64,000 bases of DNA. Origin: a virus (Duplodnaviria; Heunggongvirae; Uroviricota; Caudoviricetes). The stretch spans positions 82,529 through 146,528 of IMG/VR virus record IMGVR_UViG_2909739949_000002; one strand, written 5' to 3'. Each line of letters starts with the position of its first letter. Position 1 is the first letter of the stretch. Position numbers and translations under genes: made by a program. This document shows, one piece after another, positions 4,620 to 57,182 of the stretch. The notes beneath the pieces were generated by a model that saw only the letters and a list, made by a program, of their open reading frames with translations, ran no database searches and had not been told where the DNA came from.

Positions 4620-5477
4620 ATGTTATGGGTAGTGGAGAGAGGAATATTCCAAGGTAAGGAAGAAGAGAAACTAATTGCAGAGATAAAGAATCAGGGGCAC
4701 AAGGTAATAGAAGTACTTGATATAGGACAGGTTTATTCTCAGATAGAATCTGTAGATGAATATGAGCTAGCTAATAGAGAACCAGAACCTATTATATTTA
4801 GAGGCTCTTTAAAAGTTGCTAAGTATATAAATAGATATCTAAGTTGGTGGCCTGGAGCTATATTTAACCATAATAATTTTAAGTGTAGTACTTACTATAC
4901 TTACCTAGGCCCCTACTTACTTAATGATAGCTATCATCTTTTACCTTTTAGGGAATTACAAAGGAAAAGATGGGAATTAATGGCTAGTTTCTATAGAGAT
5001 GGAGGCACTACTAATCCCTTTATTAGACCAGACTCTCCTATGAAAATATTTCATGGAGATGTGTATTCATTAAAGGAATTAAATATATCTCCTATACCTG
5101 ATCCTAGTGAGTTAGTATTAATAGCGCCCTATAAAGAGATAAAGAAAGAATATAGATTTGTAGTAACTACAGATAGAGTTATTAGTGGAGCTAGTTATAG
5201 CAGAGATAACACTAATTCAGAGAGAGTGAAGGATAGTAGTAAAGCATGGAACTTTGTAGAAGAGATATTAGATTATCTTAAGAAACAAGAGTGGAGTCCA
5301 GATGAACTATTTGTTGTAGATATAGCCAGCTCTATTGAACATACAAGTTATAGAGTAGTAGAGATAAATTCATTCTCTTGTAGTGCTTTATATAGTAATG
5401 ATTTAGAAGCTGTAGTAAAGGTAGCCAGTCAAGTAGCAGAACATAAATTTAAGGAGATAGAAAATGAATGTCGCTAA
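4620..5477 (+). CDS. ATP-grasp domain protein, R2K-like (DUF4343-type)
   Basis: FIRPDSPMKIFHG, EYRFVV, FVVDIA, VVEINSFSCSALY (ExN) motifs. Confidence 0.75.
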   Translation: MLWVVERGIFQGKEEEKLIAEIKNQGHKVIEVLDIGQVYSQIESVDEYELANREPEPIIFRGSLKVAKYINRYLSWWPGAIFNHNNFKCSTYYTYLGPYLLNDSYHLLPFRELQRKRWELMASFYRDGGTTNPFIRPDSPMKIFHGDVYSLKELNISPIPDPSELVLIAPYKEIKKEYRFVVTTDRVISGASYSRDNTNSERVKDSSKAWNFVEEILDYLKKQEWSPDELFVVDIASSIEHTSYRVVEINSFSCSALYSNDLEAVVKVASQVAEHKFKEIENECR

Positions 5478-5757
5478 TGGGCTTTTAGTTTTAACTAGTG
5501 TGCTTGTTATAGGAGTTGTTCTTAAGAAGCCTTTAATTAAGGAGATAACTCTATGGAGAAATGAATATATAGAAAGTGTAGAAGCTAAAGAAGATAGAAA
5601 GAAGATATATAAAGGGAAAGAGACCGCCCTTCTTTCTGGTAATACTCCTATTAAGATATTAGGTGAATATGATGGCAGAATTAAGCACAGTATTAAAGTT
5701 CTTAACCAAGAGACAGGTGAAGAAATGTATGTGAGAAGAGAGGATATAGCTGAATGA
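5464..5757 (+). CDS. membrane-anchored hypothetical protein
   Basis: N-terminal hydrophobic helix GLLVLTSVLVIGVVL. Confidence 0.6.
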   Translation: MNVANGLLVLTSVLVIGVVLKKPLIKEITLWRNEYIESVEAKEDRKKIYKGKETALLSGNTPIKILGEYDGRIKHSIKVLNQETGEEMYVRREDIAE

Positions 5758-46993: not shown

Positions 46994-47695
46994 TTACTCT
47001 AGAGAACTAAACATAGCCCTGGCTTGTTGTATTCTCTTCCATATTCTTTGAGCGGCAATAGGATCTATTTTAGATACTTCTTCTATTACTACCTTTTGAA
47101 ATTGTTTAACAGTTTGAAGAGCAGCAATAGAAGCTGCTAATCCAGAAGCATCTTTAAGAGATTGTCTAATCTCTCTCATAACTTCTAACTTAACTTGCTC
47201 TTTAGTAGTCTTAGCAGAATAGAATGAATCATCATCTTTAATAGCAACTTGATCTAATAAGTTATATAGATTATCAAAGATAGCTTGTAATTGTGTTTGA
47301 GTATCAAATACAGATCCTTGAGTAGATTCTATCTTTTCATCTATACTACTTTCACTATAAGACTTTAACCAATTCTTTACATCTTTCTCAGTAATAACAA
47401 TACCTTGGTTCTCTAAAGAAGTTGTTATATCTTTAGTATTGAATCCACTCTCTAAGAGAGATAAAACATTATTACCTAACTTTAATCTATCTATAGGATT
47501 TAAAGATACTATTTTATAGTTATCAAGAGGAGCGCTTATAGTAGGATCAACAATTAATTCTTTAATACCATATAGCTCTTCTAATAATACTATCCATTGC
47601 TCTACTCCTATAAGCTTTTCTCTTTCTAATGTAGTCTTAAATCTATCTACAAAATCATTAAATAGCTGAACTACATTAGTGTACTCAGCAGCCAT
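46994..47695 (-). CDS. hypothetical helical protein (possible terminase small subunit / DNA-binding)
   Basis: ORF track; HTH-like middle; function is inference only. Confidence 0.35.
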   Translation of the reverse strand: MAAEYTNVVQLFNDFVDRFKTTLEREKLIGVEQWIVLLEELYGIKELIVDPTISAPLDNYKIVSLNPIDRLKLGNNVLSLLESGFNTKDITTSLENQGIVITEKDVKNWLKSYSESSIDEKIESTQGSVFDTQTQLQAIFDNLYNLLDQVAIKDDDSFYSAKTTKEQVKLEVMREIRQSLKDASGLAASIAALQTVKQFQKVVIEEVSKIDPIAAQRIWKRIQQARAMFSSLE

Positions 47696-48366
47696 TATTC
47701 AATTCCTTCTTTCTGAAGAATGTCTATTGGATCTAAATCTGCAATAACATCTGCATTAATTAAATAATTCATTAGCTGATTAATTGCTCTATCCCATCAT
47801 GTATACCCTGAGTTTCCTCATATTTAAATAGGGATTGGAACATATCATTATCCTTCTTTAAGAAGGATACTCCATTTTGTTCTCTGAACGTTTCTCTATT
47901 GAAGACTTCGCTGCTGATTGTCCATTACTATACTTACTTAGGATTTAACCTTATAAGCATCTTCTAGATTCTTTCTACTTTCGTAACCATCACACTTAGA
48001 CATATCTCATTCTTATGTTGTGGTTCTAGAAGCTTTAGGATATTCCAGTCAATTAAAGGAGTTTAGCATCCCTCATTACTGAAGGAGAGGACAAGGGTAA
48101 TAGTTCGTCCTTTTCAATGTACTAGGATCTAAATATAATCCATCAGCTATATCATTTCTAGCTCTATTAGTTTGCCATCTATATCCTAATAATCTATGAA
48201 GATATGGATCTGTTACTTTTAATTTTAATAAGGCCGCCTTTACTTGTTCATAAGTAAATATAGTCTGCTTACCATATACATGAGAGCAATCTAAAGGTTT
48301 TGCCCAAGGAAAATCATTCCTTAAATACTTGGTAATCGCATCTATACCTGGATGTGCTTGAGCCAA
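47695..48366 (-). CDS. intron-split HTH protein, 120 aa after splicing: join(48366..48107, 47797..47695)
   Basis: TTG start with GAGGT SD; spliced junction ...LDPSTLKRT-WDRAINQLMNYL...; exon-2 TAA overlaps the ATG of the next gene. Confidence 0.75.
47798..48106 (-). mobile_element. group I self-splicing intron, 309 nt, no homing endonuclease
   Basis: P AATTGACTGGAA, Q AATCAGCAGC, R GTTCAGAGAACA, S GATATGTTCC; P3 ACTCC/GGAGT; P2 and P9 GNRA loops; terminal G. Confidence 0.88.
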
Positions 48367-48425
48367 TATTACCTCTTAATTATTATTAATAAATATAAAT
48401 TATATATCTTTATATTTATAATATG

Positions 48426-51400
48426 TCAAGTAGAATAACCTGATTGAACTGTAGATAATGGATGTATCTGTCCTCTAGTTGCTAATATTAATAAATCATT
48501 TCTAGCTGATATAGCTTCTTCTAAGGTAACTACTCCATCTGTTCTATTAATAGATTTATTAGTTTCTAATACAGGAAGATTATTAATAGATAAGAATTGT
48601 AGATTAGCTTGTAAAGCAGGATTGAAAGCTTGGTTTCTAGGAATATATACAAAAGTTCTAATCTTATCTCCTATGTTAGATATAAAGGCTTGCATCTTAT
48701 TTAATACTTTATTTATCACGCCGCCTTCATGACTATTAACAGTATTACCTTTATCTATATTTATTACCTTCTGCTTTAATTCTTTTACTTCTTTTTCTTC
48801 AGAAGCTTTGATATCATTATTAACTTGTTTTATTTTAGGATTACCGTATTCCATTATCTTACTTACTTGAATCATCTCTCGGTAATTATGAGCATTAAAC
48901 ATATAGGAATACCAAATAGCTCTACCGATAACTGATTGATTATAGTATTGAGATCTAACATCAAATTCTTTATCAAGAAATAGATCTATTAAATTATGGG
49001 GTCTAATAGTAAATACGGCTTCTATAGGCTTAATTAAATCAGGTTCAGTAGAATATACATCTCCGTACAAAGAAGCGTTTAAAAATAATCTTTTAGTTCT
49101 AGCTCCTGTGTAATCAGTAGCAGCCATTAAATGTCTCTGCCAATCATTAGCAATAGCAGCTTGAGCAGTACCGCTAGAGAATGGGGCTCTAGGATCATAG
49201 AACTGATTACTAGACCAAGCTAACTGAGATTCAAATGGAGTTAAAAACCAATTAAGTAATGGAATACTAGATATCTTTCTATGAATCCAACTAGAAACAT
49301 TATTCATCATAGGAAGAGCTCCAGGAATACTGGATATAGCAGCATTAATTAAACCACCCGCCATAGCTCCTCTTGCTAAAACTCCAGGATTAGCTAAAGC
49401 TTTAAAGGGGCCTGATAAAGTAAAGAGCATACTAAGTATAGAAAGTCCACCTCCTATAAAAGAAGTGACTTTACCTGGAGATAAACCAGGTATCTTACCT
49501 AATAAATTACTAATACCTAATATACCTTCACCAATTCCTGTAGCCGCCCCTTGATACATATCTCCTATTATCTTAAAGAATCCTTTAGCAAAATCAGATT
49601 GTGTTATCTTTTCCCAAGTTTCACTTATATTCTTATGGAAAAGTACAGCTCCTCCTATTAAAGCTATACCAGTTAAAACAGCTATACCTATACCTATTGG
49701 CCCTGTAGCTAATAAAGAACCCCCTAAAGAACCCAGTGCAGCGCCTCCTCGAAAAAGAGCATAACTAAATAGAATACCTTGAATAGAATTTAAAACTGCT
49801 TCTCCAGCATGAGTAGCTTGATATCTTAAGTCACCAGTAGTATTGTTACCTAAAGCATCTTGAGTATTAGCTAGAGTAGTAAAAGCAGTCCATAAATCAA
49901 TACCTTCTATTAATCCTAGAGATTGAGTTATTGTGCCTCCTATCTTTCCTAGAGTAGGCATAATACCCAGCTTAGGTCTTTTAAGTGTAGGTATTTCTCC
50001 TTGTACTTCACCTCCAGAACCAGGTGTTAATTTATATCCAATTATTCTTTTAACTGGAGATACATGGGCACTAGCTATCTCTCCAAATCTAGTTACCTGA
50101 TGTTGACCAATATACTCTTCAATAACTTTTTCCATTCTTCTGCTATAACCGGATAGATCTTCTGGCTCAAGCACTAATAAATTATTTCTAATACCTTGGA
50201 ATAAATACCCTATTTTATCTATTACTAATTGAGATAAATAATGGATAGTTTCAGCATCACTAGATAGGTTCTTATATCTACCTAATAAATTAGCCGATGG
50301 ATTATTTCCTAGTTCATGATCTAGTAATTCTAGAATATCTTTTTGTAATTTATTTTTAATTACAGATTTTGCTGCCTCTTTAGAAGTGTCATCTAAAAAG
50401 TGTCTAGATACAGAAGCACCAAAGGATCTATCACCTACATAAACTTCATCTAAAGTATCAAAGAATCTATCTATATAATTATCTAGAGTTGATACATATA
50501 CACCATGTAATAAATCTCTAACAGCATCTTTTCTTAACCCCTTCCAGAATCCAAGCCCCCCATTTATATTCTCATGTGCATTGAATATATCTAAAACTAA
50601 ATCATCAGTCATAGATTGAACTTCTACTTGAAGACTCTGTATAGCACTCTTCGCTTCTCTTAATAAACTATCAGCACTTTGTCCTTCTGGAATTGATAAA
50701 ACAAAAGTCTTATTACCTCTTCTAATATGTAGTGATTGAGAACTATAAGAAGCACCATCTACTGAATGAACTCTTTTATCTATAAAGAACTTAAAGGTTC
50801 TTCCGTTATCTGCTGGATCTGTAAATAGATTCTTAGCCATCTTGCTAGATTTAAGAACGGCTGCTGTATCCATTCCATAGAAGTAATGACCTAATAAACC
50901 TATTCCTAATGCTCCCCCTACAGTAATAAGACCTGCATAGGCTACTGGTTTAAAAGGCCCAGTCCATGCAGATATCTGAGCATCACCAGCTTTAGCTACT
51001 TCTCCAACAAAAGAAAACTCTCCTGGATTCACTGCTTGATTCCAATCTAGATACATAGATGAATATTCTAACCATTCAGTAGTCTCATCTATTTCAGTTT
51101 TATTAGCTCTCATTTCTTTTTTATTCTTATCAAAAGAAAAGGTAATCTGTCTTAAAGATATCTTTCCTAATGGATTAAATAAATGATATAGAAAGTTAGC
51201 ATTAAATCCATCTTGAAATATATTTCCATTTATTACAGATATATTACTATCTAAGGATTTATACAGATTAGACTTATCTATATTCCTACTTGTATTAATC
51301 AACATATTAGGATCTAGAGTGTCTACCATTCTACTTATAATAGAATCTAGAGGTTGATTAGCTAATTCTACTGTTCTTCTAGTTCTTTCTCTTAGGGATA

Positions 51401-54400
51401 GAGTAAGAAGAGAGTCTTGAGTTATTAGACTCATAGTACTTTCACTAGCTGGAAGGGTATACCTTCTTCTATTCTTTGGATCTAAAGGAGATAATTGAGC
51501 AGAAGCAGTTCTTATAGCTATACCAAGGGCTCTTATCTTAGAAGCAGATGTTCTTTCATCTACTAATGAGCCGCCTGTAAATCCTAACTTCTGCATAGAT
51601 TGTTCTATTATTAACCTAAGAGGGCTACCAGATTTAAGAGCTTCTTTAAAATAGAAAGAAGAAGCCATGCTATAAATAGCAGTACTAGTATCTTGGTTAG
51701 CTGATTGTAGTTGTGAATAAAATGTAGCTGTTAATCCTTTATCTCTTAGTCTAAAAGTTACCCCTACAAAAGGAAGAATAGATTGATATGTATTCTGGGG
51801 GTTAACTATATAAGGAGCTACTAAAGTTTGTAATATACTATTAAGTCTAGATATAGATGGATCAGTTATATTAATTAGTTTCTCTCCTCTTAAAGGACGA
51901 TATTGTCCTTTAGCATTCATTATTAACTGATCATATAAATCACCTGAAGTATATCTCATCTTATCTTGTTTAGTTACTATCCTAACTACGTTAGCTATTG
52001 CTTGAGGTAGTAATTCTTTACTATTAAGAGAAGAATAGAAAGCGTCTACTGCTGCTTGTCCTTGGCTACCATTAGAATGAATAGTCCCCAGCATATTAAT
52101 AGCAAAGGTAGTTGCAAGAGCTCCAACAAATCCAGCAGTTATATATCTAGTTAGTCTACTTACTCTAGGCCCTCTTTTAGTAGACTCTGCAAAGTTTACA
52201 AATTCTGTTCTATCAGTAACCCTAAAGAAGTCTTCTCTTAAATTAGAGTCAGCTAAAAATTCATCTATATCGTCTATCCTATTCTTAGCTAAGTTATCTA
52301 AGGAATCACCAAGAGCATTATTTTCAGCTCTATCAGCAGCTAATGTAGAATGAGGACTATCTGAGAATCTAATTAGATACTCATTCATTAAATCTTTATA
52401 TTTAGCTAAGTCACTTTTATAAAAGTATCTTTTAATTCTATAGTGAAATTGTAGCGCCCAAGTAAGAGGATTACCCTCTAAATAACCTATCTTAGAACTA
52501 ACTTTATCAAAAGCAATAGCAGTACTTCTAACATCTTTACCAAAGTCATTATATATAGATGTTGTTAACCAAATAGAAGAACTACCTAAAGCAATAGTAG
52601 CCCATTGTTGAGCGGGGTCTTGTACTAGTTTATCTCTCTCAATCTTAGTATCCATACCAACACTAAGTCCAAACCATGAACTAGTGTACAAGTACATACC
52701 AGCAGTAATAATTGCTAAAGAAGGTATCTTCATTGCTGTAACCTTCCTCAGAACCTTATTATCTACTTCATTAAAGAACTTCCTCATACCAGTTGTCTTA
52801 GGAGCTATATGGGTATATATAGGTTTTCCTCCTAAAGAATAAGCTGCTGCTCCTAAAACTCCTACCCAACCACCAGCATTAATAATATTCTCATCATCGG
52901 TAAATACATCAGTTACAAATGAGAATACTTTATGAGATATAAGAGCTAGAACACCTAACTTACTAACATCTATAAGAGATCTTAACCCCCAATGTATCTT
53001 TCCCCCTGTAGCTGATAATGATTGGGTACCTTCATTAAATAATTCACTATAAAAAGAAGTATTAATCTTTACCATACTCTCCACAGTATTAAGTCCTTTA
53101 TTAGGAAAGTAAACTAAAGATTCAAGTCCGTTATAGACACTCTTAGCAGCAGTCTTAACTGTATTGCTGGCTTCAGTTAATTCTTGTAAAAGAATATTAT
53201 CCTTATTAAATAGTTTAGTTAGACCTATACTTCCTTCTAATAGTCCTAATACTGTAGCTGTATAGATTGCAAGGGTACCTCCTAGACTTCCAACAGCAGA
53301 TAGATAATTAAGTATATTATTTGGTTCGTCATTATATACAAGAGAGAAACCTAACTTGTTAGTTGCATCTAAATTAACTGCTATAGGTGCAGAGAAAGAA
53401 ACGTTGAATCCTAAAATAGGAGCAGACTGCATACCAAAGCTAAGAGATACAATACCCTTCTTACCTATTCTCTCATCAGCTCCTTTAACAGAACTAGCTA
53501 CAAAGAATTGAAAGTATTGCATAGGTGCTTGTTGAGCTATTACTCTAGTAGTTCCGGCACCTTGATTATATTTAGTAATAGGTAATCTACTAAGCATTAT
53601 TCCTGCATGGTAAACACTTAATCTATCCCCTTCAGTTAAGTATTCTCCTGCATGATATCTTCTAATAACTTCATTACGATAACTACCTAATATATCTGCT
53701 AATGCTAAATTCTCAGTAGGAGATAGATTACCTTTACCTAATAAATTCTCCCCAACAAAGGGAATACTTTTAATAGCATTAAGTACTCCTACTGCTGCCC
53801 ATCTAAAAGCAAACCTACCAGCTAATAAACCAGTACTCCAAAACGCAAAAGATTTTAACCATGCTCCTTTAGGTGTTGCTATACCTTTCTCAGTAAGAAG
53901 ATTGACTAGATATCTTTCATTCTCTAAAGATTCTCTAATCCCGAACTTAGCACTATGAGATACCTTCTGAATAGTTTCCATTACTTTAGGATTAGATACA
54001 TCTAGAGAATATCTTTCTAATTCTGCTCCCATTGTTCTGGAGGCAAGTCCAGATGCTAGAGCAATAGCCGCCCCAGTATAACCAACAGATAAGAGAGGAG
54101 TAGTTAAACCACTAGTTGGTAGTATTCTATTAGCTGTAAACTCTACTGGTGCCGCCTCTCTATGATTAATAGATAACCAGAATTGACTCCAGATAGAAGC
54201 TCCCTGAAAAGAAGACATTAAATCGTCAGCAGCTATAGAAGCACCAATAGCTAGTAGTATAAAAGTACCTATCTTACCTTTATTATTTAGGAGAGGATCT
54301 ATAGTTATAGTCTGTCTACCATGTTCTGTTCTAATCCTATCTATCTTATTCTTTTGTTTAGAATAATGACTTCTTGCTTTATCTAATAAAGCGTCTTCTC

Positions 54401-57182
54401 TACTCTGTCTCTTAAGAGCTTCTTCAGGTGATAACTTACTATGACTAATCTCTGGAGATATATGAGATTGATATTCTAATATTTGTGTAAAGAATACTTC
54501 TAGATCATCTAGATTGTTAGGATTTATCTTTCTAGTCATAGTACTTCCATCCCAAACAAGAGAACCATTTCTCACCATTTGGGTTTGTATCTGTTTTAGT
54601 TTTTTATATTCATTTAAAACATCACCATCTACTGAATAGGTAGAAATAATATTACCTAACTGAGATAATCCTTCTCTCATAATAGTGAAGGGTAGAGTAA
54701 TAGTAGATATGAATCTACCTGCGGCGGCAGCTTTTCTCGAACCCATATCTACTATCTCATTTCTAGCTAGGATAGAATTGAATCCATTATTAAAATAAAT
54801 ACTCTCAAAGGTAGATAGAAGATCAGTAAAAGAGAACACTTCCGCAAGAGTTATAAAATCTCTAGTAGATGATCTATTCCTACCAAACCATCCCCAATTA
54901 AGGGGATTAGCTGGTAAATAATAACCTAATTCATCTAAAGCCTGAGCCACGTTCTGGGCTCTTTCATAACCCATATTCTTAATAATCCATTTACCATCTT
55001 TCTTTTCTGGGTCTCCAGTATATTCTAAGTAAGGAGAAGCATAGAGGGCTTCTCTATATTTATCTAGAGAAGTTCTCATCTTTTTCCAAAGAAGACCATC
55101 AGTTCCTAAAGATACAGGATATGGGTTAATCACATCCATTATGAAGGGATCAACTATATTCTGAAAGAGATATCCAGCTCTCTTCCTATACATAATATTA
55201 GTAAGAGAAGGAACTGTACCATTAATAGTTTCATATAAATGAACCTTACCGTCTATTCTTCTTTTAGTTAACTCTTCATGTATCTTTTGTTGTCTACTAA
55301 TAGTTTCTCCAGTAGGAGTTTTAGATGTGGCATATTTAGGATCTAAGAATTCTGGGCCTATAGAAAGAATAGTAGAGGCGGCTCTAATAAATTTCACATC
55401 CTGAAATCCACTAGTGCCTTGCATAAGAGCTATATCTATCATCCCTTGAATACTACTCTTAAAGGCTTCTGAAGATATATATGAGAATGGGACTCCTAAT
55501 GTGAAGTAAGTAAGAGTTGCTATTGAAGTAGTTAACAAGAAACTAGTAGAGAAAGTTAATAAACTTTCAAAGACTCCTTTATTACTTCCTTGAGTTAAGG
55601 AAGTAGGGTCTTTCATAGGGTTCATTTCTTCTAGAAGTTCTATGTAATCACTAGTATAGGCATTGGCTCCAAAGTAATAGCCTAATGATTTATCTAGGAC
55701 TGCTCCTAATGCTCCTGCTATGGAAGGTAGAGTACCAGATTCATCTTTATATAATCTTCCATAACCATGAGAGATAGACCAGACATTAAAGTAATACCCC
55801 AATCCAGGAGTATTCATCTCTCTATCATAGTTAAGAACATAATCTGGAATAGAAGTTGGTAATTGACCGCCATGTGTAGCTACATATTTCATTCTATATG
55901 CAGCAGTAGCATATCCTTCCTTATTGATTATGTCTAGATGATCTTTACCTGCCATATCTCTAGCAGAATTATATAAAGCTAGTTCATAGAAATGAGATAC
56001 ACCATGTCTAGAAGGAAGAATATAAGTGCCACTAGAACCAGAAGTATCAAAGAAAGGGGCTAATTGAGCATTGTTATATCCATATTTATTAGCCTGATTC
56101 CCAGCCAATCTTTGAAGTTCATATTTACCACTGATATCTTTAAGATTACTTAAAAGTGAATTAGCTAGATTACCATCAGTTCTATATAATAAGTCTAGAC
56201 TTTCTCTTCTATTAGCGGCACCAGTTATATTATGAGAACCTATATAACCTATAGTTTTACCTTTATCATGAAGAGCAAAAGCTTTAAGGTGAGGTAATAA
56301 AGGATCAGCTTTATCTGGTACAAATACATCTACTCCTGATGATCTTAAATCTTGAATCGCTCTAGATAACCCTTGCTTGCTACCACCAGTAGCTCCTCTA
56401 GCTGTACTATCTGGATTAGAAGATATAAGAGTAACTTTAGCGCCTCTATCACTAGCATCCTGTAAAGCATTGACTATTGCTGGATCATCTATATAAGGAG
56501 AAGCTATAACTATCTCTGCATTATTAGAAGCTCTTTTAATGTCACCAATAATAGAAGCAGTAGCGTCTTGTCCTATAAAGAAATTACCTCTACTTTGAGG
56601 ATTAATTCCTTTAATAACATCTTCTTGAATACCTGTAAGATCTTTTATATCGTTCTTATTCCCTATCTTTACTGCTAAGTTTATTTGATAAAGACTTGAA
56701 CTATTAGAGAAATGTTTAGTGAGACTATTTAATATACTAAGAGATTGCCTAGCTAATCTTGATTGTGGAACTTGTTGATGAGAAGAGTTAGTTAAATTGG
56801 CTGTGGATATAAGAGCTGTAGGTAAAGAATCTTCAGTACCTACATAACTTTTTATATGTAATCTAGCTTTCTCTCCAGGTTCAGAATATTTAATTATTGA
56901 TATTCCTCTTTTCTGAAGGGAAGTAGAAAATCTATTTCTATGTTCTACCTCTTCTATATCTATATTAAAATTATCATCTATAAGATATCCTGTGTTAAGT
57001 ATTACTCTGTTAGAGGCTCTAGTAAAAGATGGTGTTATAGAAGTACTAGGTAACTCAAATAGGGTAGATGTCATACTACCTTGATCTACGCCCTCAAAGA
57101 AAGCTCTGGTACCAGAGCTAACTTCTGAAGGACTATATAAAGTACTTTCTTGTTTTACTAACCTAGATTGTTGATTTAGCAC
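48426..57182 (-). CDS. 2918-aa probable virion/ejection or tape-measure-like protein with N-terminal tandem PLD motifs
   Basis: HIK...STANLT and HLK...GSHNIT, IASPY; many Gly/Ala-rich hydrophobic segments; located in late block. Confidence 0.6.
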   Translation of the reverse strand: MLNQQSRLVKQESTLYSPSEVSSGTRAFFEGVDQGSMTSTLFELPSTSITPSFTRASNRVILNTGYLIDDNFNIDIEEVEHRNRFSTSLQKRGISIIKYSEPGEKARLHIKSYVGTEDSLPTALISTANLTNSSHQQVPQSRLARQSLSILNSLTKHFSNSSSLYQINLAVKIGNKNDIKDLTGIQEDVIKGINPQSRGNFFIGQDATASIIGDIKRASNNAEIVIASPYIDDPAIVNALQDASDRGAKVTLISSNPDSTARGATGGSKQGLSRAIQDLRSSGVDVFVPDKADPLLPHLKAFALHDKGKTIGYIGSHNITGAANRRESLDLLYRTDGNLANSLLSNLKDISGKYELQRLAGNQANKYGYNNAQLAPFFDTSGSSGTYILPSRHGVSHFYELALYNSARDMAGKDHLDIINKEGYATAAYRMKYVATHGGQLPTSIPDYVLNYDREMNTPGLGYYFNVWSISHGYGRLYKDESGTLPSIAGALGAVLDKSLGYYFGANAYTSDYIELLEEMNPMKDPTSLTQGSNKGVFESLLTFSTSFLLTTSIATLTYFTLGVPFSYISSEAFKSSIQGMIDIALMQGTSGFQDVKFIRAASTILSIGPEFLDPKYATSKTPTGETISRQQKIHEELTKRRIDGKVHLYETINGTVPSLTNIMYRKRAGYLFQNIVDPFIMDVINPYPVSLGTDGLLWKKMRTSLDKYREALYASPYLEYTGDPEKKDGKWIIKNMGYERAQNVAQALDELGYYLPANPLNWGWFGRNRSSTRDFITLAEVFSFTDLLSTFESIYFNNGFNSILARNEIVDMGSRKAAAAGRFISTITLPFTIMREGLSQLGNIISTYSVDGDVLNEYKKLKQIQTQMVRNGSLVWDGSTMTRKINPNNLDDLEVFFTQILEYQSHISPEISHSKLSPEEALKRQSREDALLDKARSHYSKQKNKIDRIRTEHGRQTITIDPLLNNKGKIGTFILLAIGASIAADDLMSSFQGASIWSQFWLSINHREAAPVEFTANRILPTSGLTTPLLSVGYTGAAIALASGLASRTMGAELERYSLDVSNPKVMETIQKVSHSAKFGIRESLENERYLVNLLTEKGIATPKGAWLKSFAFWSTGLLAGRFAFRWAAVGVLNAIKSIPFVGENLLGKGNLSPTENLALADILGSYRNEVIRRYHAGEYLTEGDRLSVYHAGIMLSRLPITKYNQGAGTTRVIAQQAPMQYFQFFVASSVKGADERIGKKGIVSLSFGMQSAPILGFNVSFSAPIAVNLDATNKLGFSLVYNDEPNNILNYLSAVGSLGGTLAIYTATVLGLLEGSIGLTKLFNKDNILLQELTEASNTVKTAAKSVYNGLESLVYFPNKGLNTVESMVKINTSFYSELFNEGTQSLSATGGKIHWGLRSLIDVSKLGVLALISHKVFSFVTDVFTDDENIINAGGWVGVLGAAAYSLGGKPIYTHIAPKTTGMRKFFNEVDNKVLRKVTAMKIPSLAIITAGMYLYTSSWFGLSVGMDTKIERDKLVQDPAQQWATIALGSSSIWLTTSIYNDFGKDVRSTAIAFDKVSSKIGYLEGNPLTWALQFHYRIKRYFYKSDLAKYKDLMNEYLIRFSDSPHSTLAADRAENNALGDSLDNLAKNRIDDIDEFLADSNLREDFFRVTDRTEFVNFAESTKRGPRVSRLTRYITAGFVGALATTFAINMLGTIHSNGSQGQAAVDAFYSSLNSKELLPQAIANVVRIVTKQDKMRYTSGDLYDQLIMNAKGQYRPLRGEKLINITDPSISRLNSILQTLVAPYIVNPQNTYQSILPFVGVTFRLRDKGLTATFYSQLQSANQDTSTAIYSMASSFYFKEALKSGSPLRLIIEQSMQKLGFTGGSLVDERTSASKIRALGIAIRTASAQLSPLDPKNRRRYTLPASESTMSLITQDSLLTLSLRERTRRTVELANQPLDSIISRMVDTLDPNMLINTSRNIDKSNLYKSLDSNISVINGNIFQDGFNANFLYHLFNPLGKISLRQITFSFDKNKKEMRANKTEIDETTEWLEYSSMYLDWNQAVNPGEFSFVGEVAKAGDAQISAWTGPFKPVAYAGLITVGGALGIGLLGHYFYGMDTAAVLKSSKMAKNLFTDPADNGRTFKFFIDKRVHSVDGASYSSQSLHIRRGNKTFVLSIPEGQSADSLLREAKSAIQSLQVEVQSMTDDLVLDIFNAHENINGGLGFWKGLRKDAVRDLLHGVYVSTLDNYIDRFFDTLDEVYVGDRSFGASVSRHFLDDTSKEAAKSVIKNKLQKDILELLDHELGNNPSANLLGRYKNLSSDAETIHYLSQLVIDKIGYLFQGIRNNLLVLEPEDLSGYSRRMEKVIEEYIGQHQVTRFGEIASAHVSPVKRIIGYKLTPGSGGEVQGEIPTLKRPKLGIMPTLGKIGGTITQSLGLIEGIDLWTAFTTLANTQDALGNNTTGDLRYQATHAGEAVLNSIQGILFSYALFRGGAALGSLGGSLLATGPIGIGIAVLTGIALIGGAVLFHKNISETWEKITQSDFAKGFFKIIGDMYQGAATGIGEGILGISNLLGKIPGLSPGKVTSFIGGGLSILSMLFTLSGPFKALANPGVLARGAMAGGLINAAISSIPGALPMMNNVSSWIHRKISSIPLLNWFLTPFESQLAWSSNQFYDPRAPFSSGTAQAAIANDWQRHLMAATDYTGARTKRLFLNASLYGDVYSTEPDLIKPIEAVFTIRPHNLIDLFLDKEFDVRSQYYNQSVIGRAIWYSYMFNAHNYREMIQVSKIMEYGNPKIKQVNNDIKASEEKEVKELKQKVINIDKGNTVNSHEGGVINKVLNKMQAFISNIGDKIRTFVYIPRNQAFNPALQANLQFLSINNLPVLETNKSINRTDGVVTLEEAISARNDLLILATRGQIHPLSTVQSGYST

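Follow-up and report, generated by a model that had tools for sequence, protein, structure and literature searches.

A predicted group I intron with a C-G pair at its 5' splice site in a cyanophage gene for a sigma region 4-like protein

The stretch of DNA analysed here (the window, 64,000 nt; positions 82,529 to 146,528 of the IMG/VR record IMGVR_UViG_2909739949_000002) contains on its minus strand a segment, 48106-47798, which is very likely a group I intron. It is 309 nt long, harbours no open reading frame (ORF), and interrupts a gene of a Ma-LMM01-like cyanophage that codes for a protein of 120 aa. Judged from the sequence, the intron truly belongs to group I, and both its host gene and its phage group are new for such introns; a variant of the catalytic helix P7 is confirmed, and a C-G pair at the 5' splice site is well argued but predicted. 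New is also that three homologous genes from metagenomes apparently carry group I introns directly beside the insertion site in the window. Phage group I introns are thereby extended to a transcription-factor-like gene of the Ma-LMM01 cyanophage group, and in the literature searched we found no report of an intron in this gene. For annotation the intron matters, since without it one would record the gene as a truncated ORF of 96 aa.

Identity and fold of the intron

When the Rfam covariance model RF00028 (curated cut-off 50 bits) was run against a 1-kb stretch, the segment was matched with 47.4 bits (E 9.5e-11) in an end-to-end alignment, in which the model positions 1-253 correspond to 48092-47817. 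Homology was also found at the DNA level. In a sensitive blastn search against phage records, the intron core (approximately 48064-47802) was present in 47 records with 70-81% identity, among them Clostridium phage D-1873 (where it is annotated as 'Group I catalytic intron'), c-st, Alicyclobacillus KKP_3916, Bacillus vB_BceH_LY2, Enterocloster phages and Staphylococcus Kayviruses. By this similarity, the intron belongs to a lineage common with phages of Firmicutes.

For the analysis of covariation, eight related introns including that of the window were aligned. Their RNAalifold consensus comprises 62 pairs, 41 of which show compensatory changes. For 55 of the consensus pairs, standard pairing was found in 95.3% of the cells, compared to 33-41% after sliding the 3' partners by one to three columns, and 35 pairs are changed on both sides (5-11 in the slid controls). 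None of 500 shuffles reached the observed covariation. The intron in the window has 60 of these 62 pairs intact, and the other two are located in P9, which has its own hairpin off the consensus register. Thus the core helices P3 to P8, including the P7 strand pair, and the P, Q, R and S elements are maintained by covariation, P3 and P8 having been read by eye. An nhmmer search with the eight-intron alignment revealed a single copy of the intron in the 168-kb genome. This group I intron was proposed in a first-pass annotation from the letters of the sequence, and it is now supported by the covariance-model match, the homology to known phage introns and the covariation; all structural elements listed there were found at their places by reading of the sequence (Table 1).

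The same annotation had pointed to an unusual P7. In the window, this helix consists of the pairs G-C, A-U, A-U, C-G and A-U (GAACA with UGUUC), while in the other seven of the eight introns it consists of G-C, A-U, C-G, U-A and A-U (GACUA with UAGUC). The window's intron is alone in having two P7 pairs, the third and the fourth, changed on both sides, and the pair in the first P7 column is G-C in all eight. The G-C pair next to the P7 bulge is the guanosine-binding position in studied group I introns, and G47882-C47838 beside the bulged A47883 is the candidate for this pair. The proposed variant, with two compensatory changes and a retained G-C pair, was recovered, and of the eight introns only that of the window has it. 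Two compensatory double changes indicate selection for pairing, and the four coordinated substitutions in a catalytic helix are hard to square with a decaying element.

Table 1. Coordinates of the intron, its structural elements, the flanking exons and the downstream gene in the window (splice sites are marked by a slash)
Feature	Position	Strand	Description and basis
Group I intron	47798..48106	-	RF00028 match, phage-intron homology, 60/62 consensus pairs; 309 nt, no ORF
Exon 1 of the sigma-region-4-like helix-turn-helix gene (predicted)	48107..48366	-	TTG start; residues 1-86 and first two bases of the Thr87 codon
Exon 2 (predicted)	47695..47797	-	final base of the Thr87 codon, followed by WDRAINQLMNYLINADVIADLDPIDILQKEGIE and stop
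P1 hairpin	48088..48111	-	5' strand AGGAC/GA 48111-48105; 3' strand with internal guide UUGUCCU 48094-48088
P2 hairpin, GUAA loop	48069..48086	-	48086-48080 with 48075-69; covariance-model alignment, minimum-free-energy fold, covariation
P3	48062-58 with 47873-69	-	ACUCC with GGAGU; read by eye
P8 hairpin	47868-47850	-	read by eye
R element GUUCAGAGAACA with P7 5' strand	47878..47889	-	G47884, bulged A47883, G47882-A47878; covariance-model alignment, columns 279-283 of the eight-intron alignment
S element GAUAUGUUCC with P7 3' strand	47837..47846	-	P7 strand UGUUCC 47842-47837; alignment, covariation
P9	47806..47833	-	CCCU...GAG-GAAA-CUC-AGGG; sequence reading and minimum-free-energy fold; same architecture in the L010 and RODI introns
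Terminal G 47798 and first 9 nt of exon 2 (P10 strand)	47789..47798	-	sequence reading
Downstream gene, 233 aa, phrog_32230, Ma-LMM01 gp123 homolog	46994..47695	-	start overlaps the exon 2 stop

Exon junction and 5' splice site

Without splicing, the frame of exon 1 gives an ORF of 96 aa, which ends at the double stop UAA UGA (48078-48073) in the loop and the 3' strand of P2. Approximately 280 nt past the double stop, the frame reopens with WDRAINQLMNYLINADVIADLDPIDILQKEGIE. Excision of 48106-47798 results in a 120-aa ORF containing ...STLKRTWDRAINQLMNYLIN..., the TAA of which (47697-95) overlaps the ATG of the next gene (47695-93). This is the restored frame that the first-pass annotation had expected from the removal of 309 nt. 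At the other end of the gene, the TTG start codon at 48366 is preceded by a ribosome site (AAGAGG), and the N-terminus MAQAHPGID aligns with the starts MA..P of the homologs.

An exhaustive HMMER search with an intron-less homolog of 130 aa (P0002, 53% identical to exon 1) as the query yielded a family of 46 representatives. They have the motif D.STLKRxW(D)K....NYL....L.PID in common, in which T, R and usually W are invariant; one representative reads STLKRTWDRA. Most representatives are intron-less, as are the Ma-LMM01-type cultured phages and four IMG/VR loci, and in total about 40 homologs lack the intron. Such intron-less homologs had been asked for at the outset, and they are collinear with the spliced 120-aa product, in which ...DPSTLKRTWDRAINQLMNYLIN... 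aligns with the family without any indel. Homologs ending at the read-through tail would have spoken for the 96-aa ORF; instead they continue with W-D-K-A...NYL like the spliced product.

All in-frame pairs of splice sites were enumerated, and only 48107/47797 combines a terminal G, the retained Trp and the spacing of the family. The predicted ligated junction is AAAAGGAC/AUGGGAUAG, i.e. AAAAGGAC/AUGGGAU, with AC/A as Thr codon. In the core of P1, AGGAC (48111-48107) pairs with GUCCU (48092-48088), and GA with UU adds two pairs into the intron. P1 is present in the minimum-free-energy fold, it is the strongest helix directly before P2, and the position of its guide matches that of the guide sequences in two of the metagenome introns described below (L010 and L012). 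By sequence reading, P10 is formed between A.GGG..AUAG of exon 2 (47797-89) and CUAU..CCC.U (48103-48093). Since P10 starts on the base adjoining G48092, the register is fixed, and the last base of the exon would be C48107 paired with G48092. The 5' site is thus devoid of the near-universal U-G wobble, and none of the alternatives with U-G agrees with both P2 and the protein. The pair C48107-G48092 appears to be the only reading which fits P1, P10, the terminal G and the protein together, and the C-G pair suggested in the first-pass annotation is retained as the best-fitting one.

It is very improbable that the intron is spliced at other sites, either after G48106 with A47797 as its last base, or at a 5' site ending in U with a small indel in the protein. 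With respect to the first possibility, ACG/UGG would also encode Thr-Trp and thus the same protein, and the extension of P1 includes a pair between G48106 and U48093. This junction one base downstream is disfavoured, because the intron would have to end in A, despite the guanosine-specifying G-C pair retained in P7, and a reversed G-U pair would be needed in addition. In the Anabaena intron, a swap from T-G to G-T at the 5' splice pair abolished activity (PMC12355055). With respect to the second possibility, U-ending candidates exist at 48124, 48116, 48102, 48100/48099 and 48094/48093, but they pair only with segments of P2 or would introduce an indel into the invariant S-T-L-K-R-x-W block.

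The predicted C-G pair has to be seen against the background that insertion of group I introns after a U is "virtually" universal (PMC2504315). In the Tetrahymena ribozyme, the pair C-1.G22 raises the undocking rate of P1 approximately 80-fold (PMC1891724). By this analogy, a C-G instead of a U-G pair should weaken the docking of P1, and splicing may therefore be slower than in the relatives of the intron. A U at 48107 would turn the Thr codon (ACA) into an Ile codon (AUA), and Ile is present at this position in no member of the family. Natural introns with C.G are on record: the title of Hur & Waring 1995 (Nucleic Acids Res 23:4466) refers to a pair of group I introns in which the 5' splice site has C.G, and raises the question of post-translational selection. 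These fungal mitochondrial cox1 introns likewise have a natural C.G, but they are unrelated and reside in eukaryotic organelles; they are reported to self-splice. In line with what the title implies for the fungal introns, C48107 may be kept for the sake of the Thr codon in the exon.

Host protein and neighbouring introns in its gene family

No curated family reached the threshold for the host protein, and PHROG 29168, to which it corresponds, has no function assigned. An AlphaFold (AF2) model of P0002 with 33 homologs had a predicted local distance difference test score (pLDDT) of 90. In an exhaustive VIA-align comparison, its top ~23 structural matches were sigma region 4 domains, which were superimposed on the model residues 41-106 with Z 7-8.6 and a root-mean-square deviation (rmsd) of 1.5-2.6 Å over ~60 residues. 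For example, the four-helix helix-turn-helix (HTH) of these residues resembles the sigma-70 region 4 domains of E. coli sigmaE on -35 DNA (2H27), WhiG (7LQ4) and SigK (4NQW) with Z 8.1-8.6 and rmsd 1.7-2.6 Å over 60-66 residues. Foldseek retrieved the same sigma region 4 families with weak E-values, and against the PDB it gave no match at E <= 0.001 for the P0002 model. At the level of sequence, Pfam scans with single members gave weak matches to Sigma70_ECF (8 of 33, best E 6e-5) and Phage_antitermQ (7 of 33), none of them above the cut-off, and the best E in a PDB profile search was 0.07, which is also weak.

The model is suggestive of a sigma-factor region 4-type HTH in the C-terminal 65 residues of the host protein, in agreement with the HTH gene of the first-pass annotation. 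With 120 aa and only ~40 residues before the region-4-like domain, the protein has no region 2 and therefore cannot be a complete sigma factor. According to the model, the most fitting description is that of a stand-alone region-4-type HTH protein, which probably binds DNA. The insertion site of the intron falls within the codons for the long recognition helix (model residues 84-103).

Three representatives of the family end at or just after STLKR, and their contigs carry group I introns at this place. They originate from the metagenomes GCA_013565675.1 (L010), SRR17165187 (L012) and SRR28640828 (L007). The L010 intron (65.5 bits) has the junction AGG AGC U/...G/GG GAU and the guide GGCUCC, and the L012 intron (57 bits) has UGG GAU/...G/AAG UUU and GUCCC; both exceed the Rfam cut-off. 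The intron in L007, which is also represented by L009 (28.9 bits, E 1e-5), has CGC CGU/...G/UGG GAU and GCGGC. For comparison, the corresponding sequences in the window (47.4 bits) are AGG AC/...G/A UGG GAU and GUCCU. In all four cases, the guide is matched to its own site, and the U-G pair is lacking in the window only, where it is replaced by C-G.

The insertion points in L007, L010 and L012 are 1 nt, 2 nt and 7 nt downstream of that in the window, respectively. Thus the four introns lie within 8 nt: 1 nt before (window), at (L007), 1 nt after (L010) and 6 nt after (L012) the first base of the Trp codon. Like the junction in the window, those which we infer for L007, L010 and L012 restore STLKRxWDK...NYL...PID. 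The introns of the window, L010 and L012 are relatives of one another, with an overall identity of 60-64%; L010 and L012 have a P2 with GUAA loop like the window, and L010 also has its P9 layout. In contrast, the L007/L009 intron is compact and of a different lineage. Judging by this pattern, the best-conserved part of the gene, the STLKRxWD codons, seems to have been invaded repeatedly. Since three of the introns are related, there is room for the proposal of short-range re-targeting by reverse splicing. The set also represents a natural experiment on the U-G rule, with one intron after C and three relatives after U within 8 nt of one conserved motif. It bears on the strictness of this rule and on the movement of introns between adjacent sites, and the question of the splice site is cheaply testable.

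Other searches for further loci were negative. Exact-pattern scans for the guide together with the P2 motif gave no match in viral and metagenome contigs, P0002 as single query detected no related locus in viral contigs, and exon 1 gave only two spurious 12-residue matches in metagenome contigs.

Some details of these loci are worth mentioning. The L012 intron differs by ~240 extra nt between its 5' splice site and guide; this stretch (L012:339-576) contains a 19-codon ORF (MWTEEEKNILL...), which may be what is left of an endonuclease gene once carried in the P1 loop. In L007, a 297-aa gene with a weak GIY-YIG match (4715-5608, minus strand) follows ~1.1 kb downstream of the gene with the intron, encoded on the other strand, and is a candidate for a free-standing homing endonuclease serving an ORF-less intron. 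In the window, GGGAU of exon 2 (47791-47795) is a further possible partner of the guide GUCCU (48088-48092), with the pairs G-U, G-C, G-C, A-U and U-G. This GGGAU is the exact target of the related L012 intron 7 nt downstream, and may be the trace of an earlier insertion site or part of a competing helix.

The introns of Firmicute phages offer a second comparison. Those in the tail-tube gene of the Kayvirus phiIPLA-RODI, in the LY2 portal gene, in c-st/D-1873, in KKP_3916 and in Enterocloster phage CB457P1 have the P3-P7 core and a long, highly conserved P5 extension in common with the window (70-81% identity over ~180 nt), and like them, the intron in the window interrupts a protein-coding gene of a phage. 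However, the Firmicute-phage introns are found in structural genes (tail tube, portal), while that of the window is in a regulator-like gene of a cyanophage. Several of them carry an ORF for an endonuclease or an IS605-type transposase, which is absent from the window's intron, and they have the canonical P7 (GACUA with UAGUC). At the 5' splice site, the phiIPLA-RODI intron shows U-G (read by eye), again unlike the window. In c-st (L003:2501-4250) and LY2 (L005:2001-3539, inside the portal gene) ORFs for IS605-type transposases come after the homologous intron core, in an IStron-like arrangement. An IStron was ruled out for the window, since the 309 nt contain no ORF for an IS605-type transposase or TnpB.

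Predicted splicing and its alternatives

We propose that the transcript would fold into the usual P1-P10 core and be spliced in two steps. In the first step, free guanosine at G47882-C47838 of P7 would attack after C48107, which is held in P1 by the guide GUCCU. In the second step, the freed end of exon 1 would attack after the terminal G47798, positioned by P10. Joining of the exons would create the Thr codon AC/A and restore the recognition helix ...STLKRTWDRAINQL..., while the unspliced RNA would give rise to the 96-aa protein, which would lack most of this helix.

Several observations weigh against this proposal. Splicing and the exact junction were deduced from sequence, and the synonymous junction one base downstream was mentioned above. 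The U-G wobble is absent in the window but present in all three introns at neighbouring sites. The score against RF00028 is 2.6 bits under the curated cut-off, and for this reason the intron was missed by RF00028/Rfam scans of the whole window (in gathering and E-value modes) and of the whole phage genome; we take these misses as an effect of filter and threshold and not as evidence against the intron. The 168-kb virus record is classed as a provirus, which leaves room for decay. Further, the frame of exon 1 runs 10 codons into the intron (48073-48106), through the guide and P2's 5' strand, so that translating ribosomes could disturb the formation of P1; in L007, L010 and L012 a stop codon closes the frame ahead of the guide. 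Finally, the sequence-profile matches of the host protein to sigma region 4 are weak, and the assignment is based on the model of a homolog with 53% identity, for which Z 7-8.6 is suggestive but, with so small a helical domain, not decisive.

Alternatively, the intron might be real by descent but spliced no longer or only in traces, a U-to-C change at the 5' splice site in a resident prophage having left the gene as a pseudogene truncated to 96 aa. The loss of U-G, the effect of the C-G pair in Tetrahymena, the provirus class, the low Rfam score and the frame crossing the guide are in line with this explanation. We nevertheless consider it unlikely. The 60 intact consensus pairs and the two compensatory double changes in P7, which require selection for pairing, speak against decay, and exon 2 retains all conserved residues of the family (WD.A...NYL...L.PID) together with the overlapping TAATG; in addition, natural introns with C.G at this site are on record. 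Group I descent itself follows from the homology to phage introns, and the missing U-G lowers the confidence in efficient splicing only. A group I intron that is spliced at the predicted junction remains our preferred explanation.

The first-pass annotation had gone further and suggested that splicing could gate a late-gene regulator encoded where the structural block ends, which is speculation. In this scenario, the weak C-G site and the passage of ribosomes would make splicing conditional and set the amount of the regulator during infection. Circumstantially, it agrees with a splice pair that is predicted to be non-canonical, in a gene resembling that of a regulator, and with in-frame stops after the guide, unlike in L007, L010 and L012. 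However, about 40 homologs, including cultured Ma-LMM01-type phages, are intron-less, and therefore the gene does not need an intron. Moreover, four insertion positions and two lineages resemble the selfish invasion of a conserved target and not a conserved control device. This makes a regulatory role of the intron improbable.

A broader possibility, which as a whole we regard as unlikely, is that the C-G pair is genuine and functional, that this phage intron is spliced without U-G wobble at a rate low enough for the output of the regulator to depend on it, and that one lineage was repeatedly re-targeted. If this were true, the intron in the window and its relatives would document one lineage re-targeted to positions 1-7 nt apart, with guides re-matched each time. 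Re-matched guides would be the signature expected of transposition mediated by reverse splicing and not of homing by an endonuclease.

As scans at the Rfam threshold miss the intron described here, similar introns in cyanophage genomes are probably under-counted. Other structured RNAs of the 168-kb genome with scores below the threshold may likewise escape whole-window Rfam scans.

The gene set found here matches that of Microcystis phage Ma-LMM01 and includes the host gene, the gp123 homolog, a RuvC-like resolvase, a PD-(D/E)XK nuclease and a giant protein of 2918 aa. In Ma-LMM01, the homolog of the host gene is gp124, beside the nuclease and resolvase genes. A promoter scan revealed sigma-70-like sites no more commonly than in shuffled sequences. 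Upstream of the gene (48399-48429, minus strand) there is a perfect TTGACA (48429-24), followed by TATATA at a distance of 17 nt or TATAAT at 19 nt; in this AT-rich region, where the consensus scan did not flag it, the motif is weak evidence for an own promoter. The 2918-aa ORF is located directly upstream (48426-57182, minus strand). It is the counterpart of Ma-LMM01 gp120 (~2900 aa, hypothetical) and contains HxK (phospholipase D-like) motifs near its N-terminus.

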